This document shows positions 19,871 to 60,180 of a stretch of DNA of 64,000 bases, in pieces. The notes beneath the pieces are model-generated. The model was given only the letters and a program-made list of their open reading frames with translations, did not search any database and was not told the origin of the DNA. Made by a program: the position numbers and the translations under genes. Positions within the stretch are counted from its first letter, which is position 1, and the number at the start of each line of letters is the position of its first letter. Source of the DNA: Octopus vulgaris. Its lineage: Eukaryota. The DNA lies in the NCBI GenBank assembly GCA_951406725.2, contig OX597827.1:28892001-28956000 (forward strand), written 5' to 3'.

Positions 19871-19955
<85 letters not shown>

Positions 19956-21222
19956 CATATAATTAAGGGCTAAAGAGGGTTATTCTAAAGCCAATACACT
20001 AATTTATCCACTTATAATCCGCTTGCTACAGGAGAATTGAAACTGAAAACGGGCAACTAACCTTTAGAAAATTTAAATTTCGTTATCTCTATATTGAATC
20101 AATTTCGCAATTAATCTTTTAAAAAGATATATTCTTTCTTCAGTAGAGCTTTCGATGGGATATAAATAAAATACTCACGTATGATCATGGAAAAAGCACA
20201 AGCTAAAAACATAACTACACTTGAGTACATCATTTATATCTAAAAATAAAAATTCTTTGGTCAGCCTCAGAAACAACGTCTTGACCTTTCGCCGCTACAA
20301 ATTGTAATGGTTACCTGTCCTCCCGTAGCAAGCAGCGAGTTTACTACTAACAATATAGGATGAAGTCCCTTTCTCTACAGAAAAGGAATCCATCAGGAAG
20401 CGTGGGCAGTATATTTAAAAAAACCGTTACGGTTGAAGTATAAACATCATATAATTAAGGGCTAAAGAGGGTTATTCTAAAGCCAATACACTGATTTATC
20501 CACTTATAATCCGCTTGCTACAGGAGAATTGAAACTGAAAACGGGCAACTAACCTTTAGAAAATTTAAATTTCGTTATCTCTATATTGAATCAATTTCGC
20601 AATTAATCTTATAAAAAGATATATTCTTTCTTCAGTAGAGCTTTCGATGGGATATAAATAAAATACTCACGTATGATCATGGAAAAAGAACAAGCTAAAA
20701 ACATAACTACACTTGAGTACACTTGAGTAGCAAGCAGCGATGCTACGGGAGGACCGGTAACCATTACAATTTGTAGCGGCGAAAGGTCAAGACGTTGTTT
20801 CTGAGGCTGACCAAAGAATTTTTATTTTTAGATATAAATGATGTACTCAAGTGTAGTTATGTTTTTAGCTTGTGCTTTTTCCATGATCATACGTGAGTAT
20901 TTTATTTATATCCCATCGAAAGCTCTACTGAAGAAAGAATATATCTTTTTATAAGATTAATTGCGAAATTGATTCAATATAGAGATAACGAAATTTAAAT
21001 TTTTTAAAGGTTAGTTGCCCGTTTTCAGTTTCAATTCTCCTGTAGCAAGCGGATTATAAGTGGATAAATCAGTGTATTGGCTTTAGAATAACCCTCTTTA
21101 GCCCTTAATTATATGATGTTTATACTTCAACCGTAACGGGTTTTTTTAAATATACTGCCCACGCTTCCTGATGGATTCCTTTTCTGTAGAGAAAGGGACT
21201 TCATCCTATATTGTTAGTAGTA
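19956..21222. repeat. 492-bp unit array: about 1.55 direct copies followed by about 1 inverted copy
   Basis: 19956 repeats at 20448 (period 492); 20741-21222 is the reverse complement; copies nearly identical; (TA)n on both flanks. Confidence 0.92.
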
Positions 21223-23049: not shown

Positions 23050-23277
23050 TTGCATTATTTACATTATTTACATTTGACGGATATTTGTCCTCATCTTTGT
23101 TGTTAACACAACATTTCGACTGATAGACTCTCCAGCCTTAGGAATGAGAACCCAGGTTCGAAATTTCCCCAAGACACCTCATGAAGGCTGGAGGGTATAT
23201 CAGCCGAAACGTTGTGCTAACAACAAACACGATGAGGATAAATATCGTCTAATGTAAATAATGTAAATAATGTAAAA
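23050..23277. mobile_element. Inverted pLTR-like repeat with mutated HHR (23173-23218, +)
   Basis: GACAC-CTCATGA-A-GGCTG(...)CAGCC-GAAAC-GTT-GTGC with G5->C. Arms 23053-23139 and 23185-23275. Same family as 59828-60180. Confidence 0.75.
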
Positions 23278-23289
23278 AACCTTCGTTTG

Positions 23290-23380
<91 letters not shown>

Positions 23381-23488
23381 TAATAATAATAACAACAACA
23401 ATTATATATATATATATATATTGTGACCGCGTGTGTACCGTTGGCGATTTTTTTCTCTGTCTTCCCTTCTCTGGATCTTTCCTTCTAT

Positions 23489-23523
23489 GTTTCCGACGAA
23501 GAGCTCCGCTCGAAACGTTTAAC
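23489..23523 (+). ncRNA. Minimal type I hammerhead (U4C core)
   Basis: GTTT-CCGACGA-A-GAGC(TCC)GCTC-GAAAC-GTT-TAAC; palindromic AACGTT stem III; one mismatch in helix I. Confidence 0.6.
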
Positions 23524-28204: not shown

Positions 28205-28510
28205 GGGTGGGTATATATTAGAACATTTATAGGTAGAAGGTCTTACAGCTGTTTCCAGGATATTTATTAATTATATCCCTTCATCGGAGACGGTGTGAGA
28301 GGAAGGTTAAGTCATAGTTAGTTTAGATGTGATATAAAATAGAGAGTGAGGTGGTGGAAAGAAAACTCTCTATTTTATATCACATCTAAACTAACTATGA
28401 CTTAATCATCTTCTCTAACCGTCTCCGATGAAGGGATATAATAAAAAATTATCCTGGAAACAGCTGTAAGACCTTATATCTATAAATGTTCTAATATCTA
28501 CACAGCTTTG
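28205..28510. mobile_element. Inverted repeat carrying two U4C hammerheads (28240-28291 -, 28421-28472 +)
   Basis: GTCT-CCGATGA-A-GGGATA(loop)TATCCT-G-GAAAC-AGCT-GTA-AGAC on both arms. Confidence 0.75.
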
Positions 28511-31143: not shown

Positions 31144-31180
<37 letters not shown>

Positions 31181-31348
31181 CATAAGGGACTAAAGCCATC
31201 TGAATATGGCTAGGGACAGGGCAGGGTGGTGGGGGTGTTACTGTTGCATTTAGCCCCAGGCGAACATCGACGTCACCAGAAAGGCTCGACACCGTCACGC
31301 TGCCCTTAACCTGCAAAGGGAGGTAATTCCCCGATGAAGCGGAAACCA

Positions 31349-31394
31349 CACACGGACCATGGTTTCAAGGTGTATTGCCTATCATCGGCGTGTG
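31349..31394 (-). ncRNA. Type I hammerhead ribozyme, inverted block (also 31709-31754)
   Basis: Exact reverse complement of 32098-32143. Confidence 0.8.
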
Positions 31395-32097
31395 GTAGGC
31401 CTCCGCTTCCTCGACGAATTCTCACTCTGCAGGATTTTCTTATATAGATTTTCAAGCAAAATACATTTGCTGATTTCGAAAATCTGTTCGAAAGCAATAA
31501 TAATTCTCTAAAAGGGATATAGACAGTAACTGCTCGATAACATAAGGGACTAAAGCCATCTGAATATGGCTAGGGACAGGGCAGGGTGGTGGGGGTGTTA
31601 CTGTTGCATTTAGCCCCAGGCGAACATCGACGTCACCAGAAAGGCTCGACACCGTCACGGTGCCCTTAACCTGCAAAGGGAGGTAATTCCCCGATGAAGC
31701 GGAAACCACACACGGACCATGGTTTCAAGGTGTATTGCCTATCATCGGCGTGTGGTAGGCCTCCGCTTCCTCGACGAATTCTCACTCTGCAGGATTTTCT
31801 TATATAGATTTTCAAGCAAAATACATTTGCTGATTTCGAAAATCTGTTCGAAAGCAATAATAATTCTCTCGCCTGGGGCTAAATGCAACAGTAACACCCC
31901 CACCACCCTGCCCTGTCCCTAGCCATATTCAGATGGCTTTAGTCCCTTATGTTATCGAGCAGTTACTGTCTATATCCCTTTTAGAGAATTATTATTGCTT
32001 TCGAACAGATTTTCGAAATCAGCAAATGTATTTTGCTTGAAAATCTATATAAGAAAATCCTGCAGAGTGAGAATTCGTCGAGGAAGCGGAGGCCTAC

Positions 32098-32143
32098 CAC
32101 ACGCCGATGATAGGCAATACACCTTGAAACCATGGTCCGTGTG
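32098..32143 (+). ncRNA. Type I hammerhead ribozyme (repeated at +360, +720, +1080, +1440)
   Basis: CACACG-CCGATGA-TAGG(CAATACA)CCTT-GAAAC-CATG-GTC^CGTGTG; predicted cleavage after 32137; helix I extends over 32079-32160. Confidence 0.8.
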
Positions 32144-33797
32144 TGGTTTCCGCTTCATCGGGGAATTACCTCCCTTTGCAGGTTAAGGGCACCGTGACGG
32201 TGTCGAGCCTTTCTGGTGACGTCGATGTTCGCCTGGGGCTAAATGCAACAGTAACACCCCCACCACCCTGCCCTGTCCCTAGCCATATTCAGATGGCTTT
32301 AGTCCCTTATGTTATCGAGCAGTTACTGTCTATATCCCTTTTAGAGAATTATTATTGCTTTCGAACAGATTTTCGAAATCAGCAAATGTATTTTGCTTGA
32401 AAATCTATATAAGAAAATCCTGCAGAGTGAGAATTCGTCGAGGAAGCGGAGGCCTACCACACGCCGATGATAGGCAATACACCTTGAAACCATGGTCCGT
32501 GTGTGGTTTCCGCTTCATCGGGGAATTACCTCCCTTTGCAGGTTAAGGGCACCGTGACGGTGTCGAGCCTTTCTGGTGACGTCGATGTTCGCCTGGGGCT
32601 AAATGCAACAGTAACACCCCCACCAACCTGCCCTGTCCCTAGCCATATTCAGATGGCTTTAGTCCCTTATGTTATCGAGCAGTTACTGTCTATATCCCTT
32701 TTAGAGAATTATTATTGCTTTCGAACAGATTTTCGAAATCAGCAAATGTATTTTGCTTGAAAATCTATATAAGAAAATCCTGCAGAGTGAGAATTCGTCG
32801 AGGAAGCGGAGGCCTACCACACGCCGATGATAGGCAATACACCTTGAAACCATGGTCCGTGTGTGGTTTCCGCTTCATCGGGGAATTACCTCCCTTTGCA
32901 GGTTAAGGGCACCGTGACGGTGTCGAGCCTTTCTGGTGACGTCGATGTTCGCCTGGGGCTAAATGCAACAGTAACACCCCCACCACCCTGCCCTGTCCCT
33001 AGCCATATTCAGATGGCTTTAGTCCCTTATGTTATCGAGCAGTTACTGTCTATATCCCTTTTAGAGAATTATTATTGCTTTCGAACAGATTTTCGAAATC
33101 AGCAAATGTATTTTGCTTGAAAATCTATATAAGAAAATCCTGCAGAGTGAGAATTCGTCGAGGAAGCGGAGGCCTACCACACGCCGATGATAGGCAATAC
33201 ACCTTGAAACCATGGTCCGTGTGTGGTTTCCGCTTCATCGGGGAATTACCTCCCTTTGCAGGTTAAGGGCACCGTGACGGTGTCGAGCCTTTCTGGTGAC
33301 GTCGATGTTCGCCTGGGGCTAAATGCAACAGTAACACCCCCACCAACCTGCCCTGTCCCTAGCCATATTCAGATGGCTTTAGTCCCTTATGTTATCGAGC
33401 AGTTACTGTCTATATCCCTTTTAGAGAATTATTATTGCTTTCGAACAGATTTTCGAAATCAGCAAATGTATTTTGCTTGAAAATCTATATAAGAAAATCC
33501 TGCAGAGTGAGAATTCGTCGAGGAAGCGGAGGCCTACCACACGCCGATGATAGGCAATACACCTTGAAACCATGGTCCGTGTGTGGTTTCCGCTTCATCG
33601 GGGAATTACCTCCCTTTGCAGGTTAAGGGCACCGTGACGGTGTCGAGCCTTTCTGGTGACGTCGATGTTCGCCTGGGGCTAAATGCAACAGTAACACCCC
33701 CACCACCCTGCCCTGTCCCTAGCCATATTCAGATGGCTTTAGTCCCTTATGTTATCGAGCAGTTACTGTCTATATCCCTTTTAGAGAATTATTATTG

Positions 33798-33842
<45 letters not shown>

Positions 33843-45627: not shown

Positions 45628-47435
45628 TTATAGAATAGCCCTTCTGAATGGGATCTGGATGTTACTCCATTCGGACTTTCGGTTGAGAGTAGGTTTGTAT
45701 TCTTGTATACAAACAGCTTCTGTGACCTGTCTCAACATTGCATCGGTGGGATGTGTTGATAGGATGTTCAACTTAAGTTTCCCTAAGGATTCCTTGTGGC
45801 AGTCTACAGCATGTTGGTAGAAGATGGAGTTTGGCTTCCTTTCAATGTAGTTGTCCAGGTGTTCTTTGAACCTATCATTGATGCTTCTAGAAGTCTCACC
45901 TATGTATGACTCTGGGTTAGTCGCGCAAGCTCCCTCCTGGCACTTAATCTGGTATACAGTGCCCTTGGTTTTACAATTTACATGTGGATTTGTCGAACAT
46001 ACTGCACAATTACTTTGACAGGTGATTCTATCAAATGGATATGATCTGCATAATGCCGATTTGATAGTCCTACCTGTCTTTTCTACAACTTTAATTTTTA
46101 GGCCCGTAGTGCGCAGGATTTTCTTGAATGCCTTACTTAGCTCGTTCTTAGGTGTGGTGTCAACGAACATCACTCCGTGAAATCTCCTGTTATCGTACCA
46201 AGTAACGTTTCTCATCTTTTTGTTGGTGTCCCTCTCTAACCTATTCCAGAACTTGTTGCGGTATAGGGGGCATATACCGTTTTCGTCGTTCCTTAGAATG
46301 CGTTCGAATCTAGCTTTCGCTCCTTTGTACACCCTGACTCTATCGTCTTGTGTGTATCCGGAGCGTTGCATTCGGAATATGTAGTGCTGGATGTGTTGTT
46401 GTCGTTCTTGCGGTTGGCATAGTGGTGATACATTCCTCATTACTCTAACTAAGTCTGCTACTAGGATGTTGAGTTTGGCAGTATCCGACATAGCTGAGTC
46501 ACTACGGATTACTAGTGGATTAGCCATCGGTTTCTGATAGTGTGAGTGGAGTATACAGGGTTTAATGGTTCTATTCACCATAGCATCTTCCATCCATAGC
46601 TCAGTATCTAGAACGGGTAATCGTTTACTGGGGTGTTTAGAGGGGTAGTCTATGGTAAGTTTTATACTGCTGTGGATAGAGTCAGCTATGTGTTGTATAG
46701 ATGTCATCACCTGTTCTTCACTTGGTAGAGGGCCCATAACTGTGTCTGTATTATATTTCACAACAAGGTTAATGTCGTCGACGTAACGAGAGTACATAGC
46801 CAAGTGGATGTTACGGTTTGCTAGGTACTGTTTAAAACGCTTGTCCCACCATACCATGAAGAGGTTTGCAACGTCACCGGCGATCCCCACTCCAATAGCA
46901 CCGCCTTTCGTTTGCTTATACAGTTTGTTGTCAAAATTTAAGAATATGTGTTTTTAGCGTAAACCTCAGGCTGACACCGATAGCATGTGCGATGGTGGTT
47001 CTAATATCGTGTGCACTTGAAGGTGGGTAGTCCGGCTTTGTCCATCCCTGCCAGCGCTCACAGTGAGTCTTCCTGTAAGCTGAGGTAATGGTAGGTGGTC
47101 TACCGCGTTTGTTACGGGTGGGACAAGCATATAGAAGGTTATTGCGCGACAGGTATTCATTGGTACACGTCAGGGCCAGGAAGAGCCCTAGTTCATATAC
47201 ATCCACATTCTTAAATATCATACCACTCTCACTAACTATTTCTATACATTTATCGACAGCAAAGTCTACATCGATGGAGGGGTATAGTGATACCACATCC
47301 ATGCTACCCACGATGTGGTTCTTGAGGTCACACGTGTTGTTGCATTCGCGGATCCTGCTAAGGAGGTCCTCAGTACTGTCACATACATCCGCAGATAGTT
47401 CTATTAACGGTCGTAGGAATTGTGAGTGAAAATTG
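45628..47435 (-). mobile_element. Penelope-like retroelement, 5'-truncated, RT + GIY-YIG, one frameshift near 46935
   Basis: GSMDVVSLYPSI, YKQTKGGAIG..DVANLFM, YSRYVDD, LPVLD; then CAVC..NC..KGTVYQIKC..YIGETSRSINDRFKEH..RQVTEA..PTLN. Confidence 0.95.
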
Positions 47436-47437
47436 TG

Positions 47438-52550: not shown

Positions 52551-55500
52551 TTTATGTTTGACTTTTGCTTTATGTTTGTACAAGTTGGCTCCAAATCTCA
52601 CCCAGAGACCTCAAGAGACAACAGGTTGGAAGTTCACGTTGTTGTTATGCCTAGTGTGCCATATATTTGGGGGGTTTTTTGGTGTTGTACTAGTGAATGT
52701 CTAATTGATAAATTTAAAAAAAAGTTTGTTTAAACCTTGAGATTACATAGAGAGTATTTTGCGTAGGATATGAGCAGTTCCCATGAGCATTATCTTTTGA
52801 ATTTCTGCCATTTTGGGGTTTCCTGGTATCTGAGTTAGGTAGCAATCAGCCCCTTTCGCTATCATGCCCAGGGCACTTATGACAACAGGTATTGTTTTAG
52901 TCTTCAGGTTCACATTTTGCTGATTTCTATTTCAAGATCTTTATATTTGCTCAGTTTTTGGTAGGTCTTAACAGATACGTTTATATCGATTGGGACAGTC
53001 ATATCAATGAGGAGGCATGTTCTTTGTCTGAAGTCTTTCAATATGATGTCTGGCCTGTTTGCATCTATCTTTCTGTCAGTTTGAATGGTGAAGTTCCAGA
53101 GGAATGAGATGTGGTCATTTTCAAGCACTGGAGGGGTATTGTGTTCCCACCAGTTTTTTTCATGGGGCAAATCCAGGTTTTTGCAAATTACACAGTGAAT
53201 ATATTGTGCAGCTCTATCATTCCTGTTGAGGTACTCTGTAGGGGCTAGAAGGCTGCACTTGGAGACAACATGATCAATGGTTTCATTTTGTTGTTGACAT
53301 ACACGACATGTTGGGCTACTGCCGTTCTTTAATATGTTGGCCTGGTAGTTTCTTGTTGGTAGGCATTGATCTTGAGCTGCTATGATAAACCCTTCTGTTT
53401 CAGATTTTAAGCCAGAGGCCATCAGCCATTGATGGTTCAGGGCTTTGTCAATATCTGCATTATTCGCTCTCTTTGGGTATTTGCCATAGAGAGGTTTTTC
53501 TTGCCATTTATTATTCAGAATATCTAAGGCCGCAGTTTTGGCACGGGTTTTCATGCGCTTAGCTTTTTCTGTGCTTGTCTCTTGTATGAATATCTCTAAT
53601 TCCAAAATTTGTTGTATTCGGAATTTACTTAGATATTCCTTTGCCTGTTTTGTTACTGAGTATGATGATTTCTTGCTTTCATGTTTTGAGACAAGTTTTA
53701 ACATCCAGTCCTCAGACTTTTTCATGTAGGTGTCTAGGCCAATTGTAGCAATCTTCATTGTTATTGCCAGTTGTAAAAGACCACGGCCTCCCTCTTTTCT
53801 TGGCAGATAAAGTCGTTCTGTATCTGCCATAGGGTGGTGCATTCTATGCATTGTCAACAGTTTTCGTATTTTTCTGTCAAGCATAAATATTTCAGTAATT
53901 GGCCAGTTAACGATATTGAAACTGTAAGTTACGACTGGTATGGCTAATGCATTGATCGCTACGATCCTGTTTCTTGCATTCAGCTCTGTCTTGAGTATTG
54001 CTCTCACTCTTCCATAACATTCTCTCCTGATCCTTTCCTTCATCTCTGAATGCCTTATTCCGTGCTCTTCAATTACCCATAGGTACCTGTAGCTCTCCGC
54101 TGGGTCTAGTTCTTTTATGACATTCTGCTGGTCAATGTTAACGTTAGATGTTTCTGTCATTTTTCCTTTGATAAAGGTAGCTTTTGCACATTTATCGAGG
54201 CCAAATTGCATTCTGATGTCGTCACTGAATTGTTTGACTATCGCTAGTAAGCCCTTGAGTCGTTGGTCATTTTTTTGCAAAAAGCTTTAAATCATCCATG
54301 TAAATGAGATGATTTATATTTTTATCAAACATTCTATACCCGTACTGCACGTCATTGAGCAGTTTTGAGAGAGGTATTAAGGCTAAACAAAAGAGGAGTG
54401 GTGACAGTGAATCACCCTCGAAAATGCCACATGAAACTTTTTCATCACCATCATTTAGGGTTTCATTGTCACTGTTCAAAGTTAGTGTGGTTCTCCATGA
54501 TCTCATACTTACAGTCAAAAGGTTTCGCAGAGTAGGTGCTATCTAATACATTTCCAGGCATTTCTTAATCCAGCTATGTGGTAGGCTATCAAAAGCCTTT
54601 TTATAGTCTATCCAGGCTATTGATAAGTTTTTGTGTCGTTTGTGACAATCTTCTAAAATCATCTTATTGATGAGTAGTTGATCATTACAACCGTAGGATC
54701 CACGTTTACATCCTTTCTGTTCATTAGGGAATATGCTGCTGTCTGTTAAAAAAACTATAAGTATATTCCGTCAGGACAGATGTTAGCGTTTTATACATAG
54801 TTGTTAAGCAGGTTATGGGTCTATAGTTTTTGGGTTCATTTTTGTCTTCACTTTTTAGAAGCAGGAATGTTAACCCATTAACTAGCCAAGGAGGCATTCT
54901 ACTAGGGTGTTGTAAAACATCATTGTACAGTTCTGTTAGCAGTTCATGGCTCTCTGGGAAGGCATTCAGCCAGAAGTTAGGAATTTTATCCTTTCCTGGA
55001 GACTTCCATTTGCTTCACCTCCTGAAAGCAGATCTTATATCTTCTACCTTGACACCCTCCCACTTTCGCTCTTCTAAGGAGTCCAGTTCTGTAGATATTC
55101 TATCAATCCAGGGGGCCTTTTCGCTGTGTGTTTTTTCTTCTGCCCAAATTTTATTCCAAAATCCCTGCACTTCTTCTTTTGATGGTACAGACCTTACAGT
55201 AACTGCTGTTTTTCCTATCTTCCTGTAAAAATTTTTGGGGTTATTTTTGAACATGTTGTCCTTGAAAAATCTAACACGCTTTTAATACCTCGCTATGCGG
55301 GCAGCTTTGGCAGATGCCTTTTGTTTGATGGTTTCTATGGTGGCATCAATATCAAGTATAGTTTTCATATATCTTTTCATTAATTTTGGGGTTTTTGTAG
55401 GTCTGGTAGTCTTGTGAACCTTAAGATTTTTCAAATATTCAATGTCAGACCTAAATAGTTTAATTTGTTGTTGCAAACGCTCTTGCCAAGAAGGCTTTTT

Positions 55501-56636
55501 GTGGGAATGTTGCCGTTTTCTAATCTTTACACCACATAGGATCGTTGAGATTTTCGCGGATGCATAGTATAGGTGGTTGAGATTTGTGATATCAACATCA
55601 TTAGCTGAAATTATATCCTTAAGTGCAAGCCGGACTTTTCCAATTATTTTCATGTTTTGGTTAGAGTTGCGGATTTTAGGGAGTTCATCGCGTTCATCCA
55701 TGCTGGTTTCTTTAATTTTCAGCCATTCAATCATGATTTGATTTTTTAGCTCATGGGTCAATATTTGTGTGACTTTCTTTATCTATTTGATGTTCATCTC
55801 TCTTAGTGTTTATGATTGGTTCAGGGAGTATTTCACTTTGCCTATCACTTATACTAACTCTTTCAATCCTTACTTCATTTATTCCAGCCCTGGGCTGGTC
55901 GATAATTATTTCCTCTGTATTATCTTCTCTAGCTGCAGCTTCGTTCATTTTATCCGATATTGCTTGTCTAATTTGATCAATCTCTACTTCAGTCAGTATT
56001 TTTTTTTTATGTTTCTTCTAACGTTGGCAAGTTTGTTACTGTCTATGTAGGGTCTTGTTTCAGGGTGTTTCTGTCTCCAGTTTAAGTATGTTTGTGCAGT
56101 GTTAGATTTATCTGTGGGGAAATATATGGCATGGTAGAAGGCCTCAAGAACTTCTTTATTATCTTCCCTAGACCATTTTTCCTTCTTTTGCTTTTGATTA
56201 TTTGGTGATGAGCATGGATGGCCATCTGTTGGAATATTCCGGTTGTGGGGTACGTCCAGCTCCTGTGTGTTGGGAAGATTTGATCCAGTAGCTGACTTTT
56301 CAATCAGAATTTGGTTCAATTTTCGGGTACGTGGTCTTTTGTAATCCGCGCGATGACCATTGCGGTTTGTAGTTTGCTTTGTTGACATTGACGCATGACG
56401 AGCTTCCACTCTTACATTAGGAGATGGATCTGTCAGTTTAGGGTTCTCTACACGTAAGCATTGCTCGTAGCGCAGCTTCTTAAGGCTAGCAGATCTGTAT
56501 TCGTCTGTATTTTTTTTGTTGATAGTTTTATCTCCGAACATATGTTTTTTTCCTTTTTCCTTTCCTTCTCTTCCTTTTTTCTTCTCTCTTTTTTCTTTCT
56601 CCTTCCTTCTTTCCCCTTCCTCTTTTAAACTTATAA

Positions 56637-56637
<1 letters not shown>
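52551..56637 (-). mobile_element. R4/Dong-like non-LTR retrotransposon (RT + restriction-like endonuclease), near full length, disrupted
   Basis: N-terminal KWSREDNKEVLEAFY; GIFEGDSLSPLLF; HLIYMDDLKLF; CRVC..ETIDHVVSKC; RPDII..LIDMTVP..KLSKY; (TAA)n on both sides. Confidence 0.92.
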
Positions 56638-56695
<58 letters not shown>

Positions 56696-56722
56696 CATTA
56701 TTATTATTATTATTATTATTAT

Positions 56723-59515
56723 TGAATGCATCAAAGTGACACAGGGGTAAAATATACGAAGCCCAGTATACCCATCATCACTACCCGTCTGATGAGGGTA
56801 CACCCGGCACATGCATCACAACAATATCTGCGCGACATGTTGATCTCATATCAGGATTAACATTGCAGGTGAGGCCCAGTTGCAATTTTCGTCAAGTCGA
56901 GTAGCTCACCCTGCTCAAAAGGTCCCTGAATAAGGCTTGTTTTCATTATTTCACTGGTATTCCAGTTAAGCACATTGAAGCTATAAAGAACAACTGATAC
57001 TGCTAAGGAATTTATGGCTAACACCTTATTATATGCATTCAGCTCAGACTTCAGGACTGCTCGAACTCTTCTATAACATTCCTTCCTAACCTTCTCTTTC
57101 ATGCTTGCATGCTGGGTACCAGAGCCTTCATTTATTTCTAGGTATTTATAGGTTTGTTCCTGCTCAAGTTCCTTTATTACTGTTTCGACATCTAATTCGA
57201 TTGAACCTTCTTAAAAGTGGCTTTGGCACACTTTTCAAGGTCAAACTCCATCCCGATATTGTCACTGAATCCTTTCATGGTATGTAATAATCCTTCAAGC
57301 TCTTCATCATCTTTGCCGTATAGCTTTAAATCATCCATATAAAATAGATGGCTTATTTTTCTGTTGTCAATTTTGTAGCCATATCCTGTTCTATTCAGTT
57401 CACTTGAGAGTGGTATTAGTGCTATGCAGAAAATTAGTGGTGAAAGTGTGTCAACTTGAAAAATTCCACAGTTAATGCTAATGTTGTTTGAGCGCAATAC
57501 TCCATTAGAATGATATAATTGGAGCTTCGTGTTCCATAGTGACATATTATACTTTAAAAAATCTGAAATCACAGGAGAAATTTTGAAAATGTCCAGCGAT
57601 TTCAAAATCCACGAATGCGGTATGCTGACAAAGGCTTTTTGATAATCAATCCATGAAGAGCTGAGATTTCTGCGCTTGTTATGGCAGTTCTCAAGAATCA
57701 TGCGATTAATTAGGAGCTGATCTTTGCATCCGTATGAGCCTCGTCTGCATCCTTTTTGTTCAGTGGGAAAGAGGTTATTCTCTTCCATAAACGTATGTTT
57801 TCTCTACTAGAATAGGTGTCAAAATCTTATAGGTAGTAGATAAACATGTTACAGGCCGGTAGTTTTTTGGTTCTTTCGTTTTGTATTTTGGGGGAGGAGG
57901 TAAGTAATACCATTTGCCATCCAATGGGGTGTTTTTTTCGGATCTTTCATAATACTATTAAATAGTATTACTAACATTATGTTTGCGGACGAGAGTGATG
58001 AGAGCTAGAAATTTGGTACTCTATCAATACCAGGGGATTTCCACTTATGGGCCTTCTTAGGTCGACGATTGAGATGTCTTCCCATACCTGTTCTTGTAGA
58101 CTTTTATAGTCATCTTGGGTGCGTTTGATCCACACTGCATTTTCATTGTATGGTTTCTCATCACTCCAGATCCCCTTCCAAAAGTTTTCAACTTCTTCCA
58201 TTAGGGGTGGATTTTCAATGGTTATTTTTTTTCTTTCTCTATTTCCCTGTAAAATGATTTGGCATTGGATTTGAACATCTTATTTTGTTTGTAGAATTTG
58301 ATTCTTTTCTCAAATCTGCGGATTCTCTGAGCTTTTGCTTGAACTTTTTGTTTAAGTGCTTCTTTCGCTGACATTAGTTCTTCTCTTGTTGAGTGTCCAT
58401 ATTTTCTCACAATCTTCCTGCATTTTCTTGATCTTACATCATTTTCAGAGATTAGCTCAGTTAATATTGATATCTCCCTTCGCAATGATTCAATTTCAGT
58501 TTCAATTCTACTCCTCCAGTTTGATTTTCTTTTCGAATTTGGTATTTTTGGCTTTTTTGGGTGTTAAACAGCGTCTTTCGATTACCTTAGCGACAGAGTA
58601 AATAATTTCATTGAATTTATTAACATCGGGTTTTAGTTGGTGTATGATTTCTTGTGTAACGCAGTTGCCAATTTTTATTTGTGTTTTATGTTGGTGTGCA
58701 TTTGAGAGTTTATGGAGTGGTTCCCTATCATTCATAGTTGTATGGCCTACAACTGCAATCTCATTCAGAACTTCTTGCTTCATTTCAATTATAGATTTTC
58801 TGTGTTGTTTAACAAACATGTAGTCTTCAAATTCTGCTTCGACATCATTTTCCAGGCTGTTTTTTCCAGGGTCATTATATTTTCCTTTTCCTTCAGGATC
58901 TTGAGTCGTTTCGGCAGATGGTCGCCTTTCAGTCAATGCTTGTGGCCCAGCATTCCTCTCCTCAGCTTAGTTATTTCTTTCCTGACTTACATTTAGGTCA
59001 TTCTCTGCCACTTTTCTAATAGAGGTTAATTCTGCATCTGTGAGTCTAGTATTTCTGAAGATATCTCTTCTAACATTTGCTAATTTGTTTTCATCCAGGT
59101 TTGGTCTGCTAGCTCCAAATTCTGTAGGAGTTTGCGGTGTGTTTCTCTCGGGTTGGCCTACTTAATGCAAAGTAATAAGCATATATTACTTCTTTATATT
59201 CTTCCCGGTTCCATTTAGTTCTTTTACTTTTTTGATTTTCTGGTCGTTGTGGTGGTGAACTTTGGGGGCTTAATTTGGGACAAATCCCGATTAAGTGACC
59301 TTCCAGGTTCGTATTCGGGGAAGATAGTCTGCCATTTGGAAATTTTTCGCCATCAGGCTGGCAGCCTCCTAGCGGGCGCGCTTCCTGTATAACCATTGGA
59401 CAAGCGATTCAGTGTACTGTTAGAAATTTTCTTTTCAAGTAAAGTTAAATTATTATTAAGTTTTCATTAAAAAAAACCCCCACTAATCTTCACACAGGGG
59501 CCTCATTTATAATCA
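56723..59515 (-). mobile_element. Second R4/Dong-like element, different family, internally deleted
   Basis: KWNREEYKEVIYAYY; EQKGCRRGSYGCKDQL; WIDYQKAF; HLFYMDDLKLY. Coding similarity breaks near 56937 and joins a presumed 3' UTR (56723-56935) ending in (TAA)n. Confidence 0.88.
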
Positions 59516-59827: not shown

Positions 59828-60180
59828 ATACATTTGACGGATATTTGTCCTCAACTTGTTTGTTGCTAACACAACGTTTCAGCTCGTATGCCCTCTTGGC
59901 TTGGGGGGTGTTTTTTCCAACGGTTGTAATGGATCCTCTCACGAACGAGGGCATGTTCTGCGCTTTCCACTACTCTTCTAACTTTATATGAGTTCACTGG
60001 TGTCATTATATTCAAGCCAGATAGTATTAGCTTTGAGTCTCTACATCTACGCAGGATGTCTTGGGGACACCTGATGAAGGCTGGAGGGTATATCAGCCGA
60101 AACGTTGTGTTAGCAACAAACAAGATGAGGACAAATATCAATCATATCTAAATGATGTAAATAATGTACATAATTTTTCA
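59828..60180. mobile_element. Penelope pLTR-like inverted repeat with canonical HHR (60066-60111, +)
   Basis: GACAC-CTGATGA-A-GGCTG(GAGGGTATAT)CAGCC-GAAAC-GTT-GTGTT; left arm 59828-59895 is inverted. Confidence 0.8.

Follow-up and report, generated by a model that had tools for sequence, protein, structure and literature searches.

Most metazoan type I hammerheads are described as carrying a 6-bp helix I and a helix III of 1-2 bp with a palindromic loop, and as acting as dimers; they are also thought to spare monomer circles, and a scheme in which multimers cleave while monomer circles stay stable is thus the standard model for these ribozymes, as the available text of PMC4209133 presents it. 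The minimal hammerheads (min-HHRs) of Penelope-like elements (PLEs), treated in the same source, act as dimers and have a helix III region that is palindromic; their helix I is short and its loop 1 ill-defined, helix II is long, an extra base stands at 9-10.1, and 10.1-11.1 is a G-C pair. In the axolotl, HHR_Amex2 (Cervera and de la Pena 2020, PMC7229834) has a U·U and a 2-bp helix III, and its monomer reached 22% cleavage in 1 h and its dimer much more. U10.1·U11.1 is a natural and the best-tolerated mismatch, and a viroid hammerhead with U4C (Ambros and Flores 1998, cited in PMC3088659) showed considerably less activity in vitro, yet still supported infection (PMC3088659). Furthermore, when a type III hammerhead was scanned for pairwise mutations, activity was low in mutants of the CUGA turn (PMC9901934), and eight of nine Xenopus retrozyme dimers gave no cleavage in vitro (10.64898/2026.07.22.740005). 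Our literature search, limited in coverage, returned neither a family-wide C4 retrozyme nor a description of the lineage studied here, and the available portions of PMC3907566 and PMC7151607 hold nothing on C4 or U3·G8.

The hammerhead at 32079..32160 of the window, by which we mean the whole 64,000-nucleotide stretch of Octopus vulgaris DNA under analysis, can be set against each of these systems as far as the sources describe them. With the canonical metazoan double hammerheads (PMC4209133, PMC3088659, PMC6466107) it shares a 6-bp helix I, the loop 1/loop II arrangement and a short helix III with a palindrome, whereas its stem II consists of 3 bp plus a U·U, and C replaces U4. With HHR_Amex2 (PMC7229834) it shares the type I fold, tandem repeats of about 350 bp, the U·U at the base of helix II and a helix III of 2 bp plus tetraloop; HHR_Amex2 has a weak monomer, an efficient dimer and RNA circles to its name, whereas the motif here is known from its sequence, carries C4 in its core in addition, and comes with a graded series of relatives. 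The viroid hammerhead likewise has C at position 4, with an activity that is reduced yet biologically sufficient, but it is a single variant lacking the U·U (PMC3088659), whereas C4 is here a fixed trait of an expanding genomic family that also has the U·U. As for the min-HHRs (PMC4209133), the palindromic helix III region and, as a prediction, the dimer action are held in common, but there is no short helix I without a defined loop 1, no long helix II, no extra base at 9/10.1 and no G10.1-C11.1; the motif, which had been called minimal on a sequence-only reading, is a full-size type I hammerhead. That reading also took the architecture to be unusual, although a helix I of 6 bp, a short helix III with a palindrome and dimer action are ordinary for metazoan type I hammerheads (PMC4209133) and the U·U is known in the axolotl (PMC7229834).

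Each feature, i.e. the dimer-type helix III, the U·U with dimer-enhanced cleavage and U4C, has a precedent in the sources as available to us, and neither the ribozyme nor the element is of a new kind. What is new is that the palindrome covaries, that the changes can be placed in order, and that the canonical intermediate is missing. The motif is a full-size type I hammerhead in which C4 and U·U are family-wide, and from sequence comparison and folding models we consider it somewhat probable that it works as a weakened ribozyme and cuts mainly as a double hammerhead.

Anatomy of the ribozyme and fixation of C4

The plus-strand motif at 32083-32156 forms a complete hammerhead with distal helix I, loop 1, proximal helix I, core, stem II, GAA, helix III and C17. 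Its parts are as follows (the relatives and sibling ribozymes are introduced below).

32083..32094, plus strand: 5' strand of distal helix I, 12 bp with 32145-32156; two pairs have two-sided changes across relatives
32095..32097, plus strand: loop 1, UAC opposite U 32144; U-R-C opposite U in 73/77 sibling ribozymes
32098..32103, plus strand: 5' strand of proximal helix I, 6 bp with 32138-32143; 98% of cells paired, one pair with a two-sided change
32104..32110, plus strand: core CCGAUGA; C3-G8 pair intact, C4 (32105) in place of U4
32111..32125, plus strand: stem II; mismatch U10.1 (32111)·U11.1 (32125), then 3 bp and a 7-nt loop
32126..32128, plus strand: G12 A13 A14, invariant in 20/20 relatives picked via a motif outside the ribozyme
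32129..32136, plus strand: helix III palindrome ACCAUGGU; 2 bp plus tetraloop in the monomer, an 8-bp duplex in the double hammerhead
32137..32138, plus strand: predicted cleavage site after C17 (GUC triplet; C17 = 32137), from the hammerhead consensus
32138..32156, plus strand: 3' strands of helix I, proximal 32138-32143 and distal 32145-32156
32138..32497, plus strand: predicted 360-nt monomer, running from one cut to the next and rod-like when circular (z = -4.5 for the MFE of the circle, 60 shuffles)

Three helices surround the core in the right strand order, with the ends in helix I as in type I, and C3-G8, G5, A6, A9, G12, A13, A14, A15.1-U16.1 and H17 are all in place. Core, U10.1·U11.1 and palindrome are thus as the sequence-only reading gave them, and the helix I extension across an internal loop, which it put at 10 bp, measures 12 bp in its distal part. 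Loop 1 is likely to be the partner of loop II in a tertiary contact; in all 77 sibling ribozymes loop II begins with C and ends with A. The motif departs from the strict consensus at position 4, where C is fixed, and at 10.1-11.1, where the usual pair (mostly G-C) gives way to U·U in 283/283 copies. C4 is a tolerated natural variant, which lowers the standing of the motif as a canonical hammerhead, but not as a hammerhead. CCGAUGA followed by GAAA can be read on the reverse strand too; a minus-strand hammerhead was rejected, as helix I and stem II are missing there and the relaxed descriptor does not find it, and the resemblance mirrors the self-complementarity of the unit. Just downstream of helix I, at 32155-32161 of the window, UCAUCGG is the exact complement of the CCGAUGA core, and a blocking fold through it is unfavoured in the model.

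The ribozyme is identical in all seven copies of the window (five plus, two minus). Two readings, namely that the match is due to chance or that a U4 family is represented here by a mutant copy, can be given almost no credence. The relaxed hammerhead descriptor matched none of 5000 dinucleotide shuffles of the unit on either strand and only these seven places in the 64-kb window, which, together with the fold z of -4.5, argues that the motif is not a chance match. Contigs from four of four public runs, from four studies, span the ribozyme with no alternative letter, so C4 is not an assembly error. The older relatives do have U4 in 75/77 cases, as a mutant copy would lead one to expect; however, the 20-mer beginning at C3 has 823 exact matches with C4 in the genome (assembly size 2.8 Gb) and none with U4, so the suggestion that the locus is a mutant fails, and C4 and U·U are fixed. 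C3, C4, U10.1 and U11.1 were moreover invariant in 283 of 283 full ribozyme copies from 60 loci, with the palindrome intact in 282. These loci (20 from the start of the 823-match list, 39 from the best BLAST matches and that list, and the window) were picked by C4 or by similarity, and the genome-wide counts serve as the unbiased control. Mean pairwise identity was 99.5% among 20 loci, which makes the family young. The loci L200 and L204 hold copies of the C4 family with C7 (CCGACGA), the commoner state in the sister clade, and fall outside the 823.

That strict searches would pass over the motif, as the sequence-only reading anticipated, agrees with the outcome in Rfam, which gave no match for it at gathering score, nor at E<=10. 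A genome scan with RF00163, in which 73 candidates were scored, returned six places, all unrelated to the motif. Even the CYGANGA descriptor now in use would still miss it, since that descriptor demands G10.1-C11.1 (PMC13481778, as far as its available text goes). A lone, non-tandem canonical type I hammerhead was seen at L031:1500-1546, scoring 45.5 bits to RF00163.

The retrozyme insertion

The ribozyme sits in a 360-bp tandem unit, and the insertion consists of two arms flanked by (AT)n runs.

31869..33799, plus strand: right arm, 5.4 units with five ribozymes; 44-nt tail (33756-33799) at an (AT)n run
31177..31869, minus strand: left arm, inverted and 5'-truncated, 1.9 units with two ribozymes (C3 at 31748 and 31388); terminates at an (AT)n run, 44 nt before the end that the other arm reaches

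Two head-to-head arms were found in 45 of the 60 loci, and 42 of these 45 are asymmetric, in that one arm is shorter at its end than the other by 44 nt or more. The hallmarks reported for PLEs include an inverted copy with a 5' truncation, a tail of 30-40 bp on one end and (TA)n targets (10.1101/2021.04.23.441226, as available in part), and an inverted 5'-truncated arm, a one-ended tail and a (TA)n target are all present here. The units are non-coding, lie within 150-450 bp, carry one type I hammerhead each and form dispersed arrays; the element is a non-LTR retrozyme in the sense in which PMC7229834 and 10.64898/2026.07.22.740005 define the class in their available text. Non-LTR retrozymes regarded as non-autonomous PLEs in the latter work share with it the tandem hammerhead repeats, the inverted 5'-truncated copy, the one-ended tail and the (TA)n targets, and differ from it in the tail, which is 30-40 nt as published and 44 nt here (10.64898/2026.07.22.740005; 10.1101/2021.04.23.441226).

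At seven family-wide polymorphic sites, which distinguish six haplotypes among loci, 41 of 43 loci with at least three long units have a single haplotype in both arms. One haplotype per insertion is consistent with a single template having been copied, be it a circle or a uniform multimer. On the other hand, 13 variants are common to only some units of an array and point to multi-unit templates or later duplication.

Several other repeats were recorded nearby. On the minus strand of the window, two ORF pieces at 45628-47437 resemble what we take to be a Penelope-type reverse transcriptase and a GIY-YIG nuclease; they gave no Pfam hit at E<=0.01, and as to an autonomous PLE partner, the single PLE-like ORF compared had no match in the fetched retrozyme loci. 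Broken LINE-like ORFs at 52910-58966, also on the minus strand, include a zf-RVT hit with an E of 4e-5, below the curated cut-off. At 19947-21222 the window has young repeats of about 380 bp, both direct and inverted and 98-99% identical, which are perhaps another two-armed element. Elsewhere, a 1,382-bp tandem repeat (L096:413-5940) contains a retrozyme fragment joined to other sequence, which resembles a piece of a LINE reverse transcriptase.

Older relatives, helix III covariation and the origin of C4

The young family, at 99.5% identity, is too young to reveal selection of its own. Older subfamilies, about 65-96% identical to it, were reached through a motif outside the ribozyme (1,721 matches, 45 loci fetched) and through a stem II pattern ending at 15.2, which gave 519 further matches in the older U·U clade (30 fetched). 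Neither search constrained the inside of helix III, and 77 ribozymes in 43 insertions were left after removal of overlaps. In 20 of 20 relatives (the 21 loci, picked by the motif outside the ribozyme, that have homology over the ribozyme, minus one row of non-homologous flank), U4, G5, A6, A9, G12-A14, A15.1 and U16.1 never vary, and the share of invariant columns in the rest of the unit is 39%; the lineage therefore keeps a real hammerhead, to which C4 is the exception.

The cores of the 77 siblings are UUGACGA (26), UUGAUAA (17), CUGACGA (15), UUGACAA (9), UUGAUGA (8) and CCGACGA (2), with U4 in 75/77 and U3·G8 in 34/77, and the 10.1-11.1 pair is U·U in 30, G-C in 28 and G·U in 19. An entire subfamily (L078, L084, L085, L092, L094, L096 and others) has spread with the U3·G8 wobble and G10.1·U11.1. 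Helix III is self-complementary in 73/77: the perfect palindromes are ACCGGU (25), ACUAUAGU (20), ACCUAGGU (20) and ACCAUGGU (3), 68 in total, a further five have ACCUGGGU, which pairs with G·U, and four are broken. In a set of 21 representatives picked by hand, pairing in helix III is 100% and each of the two inner pairs shows two-sided changes, which amounts to about three independent events, not 21, and predates C4. Since a lone hairpin cannot pair the central two bases, this covariation of the inner pairs suggests pairing between two units, and palindromes that were kept through two-sided changes support selection for a double-hammerhead fold, for which the short self-complementary helix III and the tandem arrangement are both at hand. 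Subfamilies with a canonical core and G10.1-C11.1 carry a 6-nt palindrome, with one pair as a monomer, whereas two clades with 8-nt palindromes have lost G10.1-C11.1 (30/31 insertions) and have U3·G8, U3-A8 or C4 in their cores. This split in core, 10.1-11.1 pair and palindrome matches that between axolotl Amex1 and Amex2.

A tree built from 200 nt outside the ribozyme (44 rows) nested the window family within UUGAYGA relatives of about 95-96% identity, with bootstraps of 98-99, and its topology was unchanged when the ribozyme was included. The sister group with the same palindrome comprises 87 copies, all U3U4 and 86 with G8 (U3·G8). The U·U and the 8-nt palindrome predate C4, and a central UA-to-AU flip came immediately ahead of it. 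Relative to these sequences, the young family changed UU to CC at positions 3-4, so that it regained the C3-G8 pair and gained C4. As regards intermediates, U3C4 occurs in none of the 87 sister copies, and canonical C3U4 (CUGA), one step from either UUGA or CCGA, was absent from the U·U clade in a genome-wide search, in which a looser C3U4 pattern covering that whole clade had 0 matches. Only two copies genome-wide combine C4 with G10.1. C4 most likely arose along with the U3-to-C3 change that restored the 3-8 pair. It is most likely tolerated rather than required for dimer action, and nothing ties C4 itself to that action.

An explanation of the U4/C4 difference by CpG decay was rejected, as the relatives are U3U4 and a C3U4 copy with this stem II does not exist. 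C4 as a structural switch was rejected as well: it allows a small competing hairpin and pairing with UCAUCGG (32155-61), but changing C4 to U shifts the ensemble energy of the circle by just 0.3 kcal/mol.

C4 also occurs in an unrelated family of minimal hammerheads with 11,888 matches, one member of which lies in the window.

23493-23519, plus strand: minimal-type hammerhead with C4 (CCGACGA) and an extra A before stem II

Among the first 100 of these matches, 75 are C3C4, 24 C3U4 and one U3U4, and T stands at position 7 in 3/100; C4 being dominant in this family too, it has spread more than once in the genome. Apart from these, the window contains an inverted pair of C4 hammerhead-like motifs at 28425 (plus) and 28287 (minus), in which stem II is long and AU-rich and the helix III region palindromic; the pair forms a third C4 family with a similar copy in L035. 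At 60071 (plus) there is a minimal-type hammerhead that has U4 and, at 9/10.1, an extra A, with a partial relative near 23173-23406.

Cleavage mode and what the series of relatives offers

In the folding model of a two-unit RNA, the palindromes pair with a probability of 0.78-0.90. The constrained double hammerhead has -170.2 kcal/mol, two single hammerheads have -154.4 and the free ensemble -175.9; the double fold thus lies 15.8 kcal/mol below two single folds, a gain that is in part the rod closed between the units, in a model that ignores tertiary contacts. The double fold also requires the exchange of an 18-bp local helix I. The natural palindrome is modelled at +2.9 kcal/mol as a hairpin and at -11.2 as a duplex, and for the monomer circle the model places the active fold 8.6 kcal/mol above the ensemble.

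It could be supposed that the monomer cleaves well enough through its loop 1/loop II contact and that the palindrome adds only a modest boost. In the text of PMC7229834 available to us, the retrozyme monomers of coral and mussel have cleavage rates of about 0.8 and 0.1 per min, the helix III of invertebrates is described as 2 bp plus tetraloop, and the monomer of Amex2 itself reached its 22%; loop 1 and loop II are, in addition, conserved in the lineage. A construction as a dimer receives comparative support from helix III, self-complementary in 73/77, and the double fold is favoured in the model, but reliance on the dimer does not follow, as invertebrate retrozyme monomers cleave. Set against efficient monomers are the inner palindrome positions, which covary though the monomer hairpin cannot pair the central two, the single helix III pair of the monomer in the subfamilies with 6-nt palindromes, and the expectation that C4 and U·U should each weaken the monomer further (PMC3088659, in the part available), and we hold such monomers to be improbable.

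The opposite possibility is that the young-family ribozyme is effectively dead, that C4 hitchhiked in a successful source copy, and that uncut multimers template the Penelope-like enzyme. C4 plus U·U may be near dead, which is a point against our best explanation, and an uncut multimer transcribed from a source array of uniform units would be equally consistent with a single haplotype in each insertion. The poor activity of CUGA-turn mutants (PMC9901934) and the eight inactive Xenopus dimers out of nine (10.64898/2026.07.22.740005), as the available text of both has it, would be in keeping with a dead ribozyme, as would the U3·G8 cores that the lineage already tolerated (34/77) and the periodic variants in some arrays. 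However, the remaining catalytic positions are all intact, the change to C4 was accompanied by a restored C3-G8, U4C supports viroid infection in vivo (PMC3088659, in part), and C4 dominates the unrelated minimal-hammerhead family (75 of the first 100 of 11,888 matches). The arm ends bear on both sides. Across the 60 loci, 3/109 5' arm ends lie within 4 nt of the predicted cut (P = 0.12); no arm starts exactly at the cut among the starts not preceded by C, nor did the one match checked genome-wide (0/1), as a dead ribozyme would have it. In contrast, five arms genome-wide (L193, L194, L195, L199 and L201) begin exactly one base past the predicted cut, where about 0.6 such arms would be expected; it was three of these that had prompted the test, however, and only 2/5 are independent of the idea. 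These are five of 11 pattern matches, the other six being point changes or small insertions, and they hint at a possible trace of a cut RNA end. On balance a dead ribozyme seems to us rather improbable.

If the weakened double hammerhead that we favour is right, the arrays would be transcribed, two units would swap helix I strands so that their palindromes join into an 8-bp helix III, and each unit would cut after C17. A host ligase would then close the 360-nt monomer, in which the lone ribozyme would be slow, so that circles persist, and a Penelope-like reverse transcriptase would copy the circles into new arrays. A further step, that the lineage was selected to keep its ribozyme weak, with C4 as a tuned brake that lets circles survive as templates, is in our judgement quite improbable; if it were true, C4 hammerheads would be a large class overlooked by strict searches.

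Descriptors that require U4 or G10.1-C11.1 undercount the hammerheads of this genome by thousands. One genome here holds a natural series of four helix III palindromes, three 10.1-11.1 states and four core states, each amplified by retrotransposition. With this series it can be tested directly whether, as has long been proposed mostly by inference, animal hammerheads cleave as dimers and thereby allow monomer circles to persist, and the series also bears on how weak a hammerhead may be and still spread.
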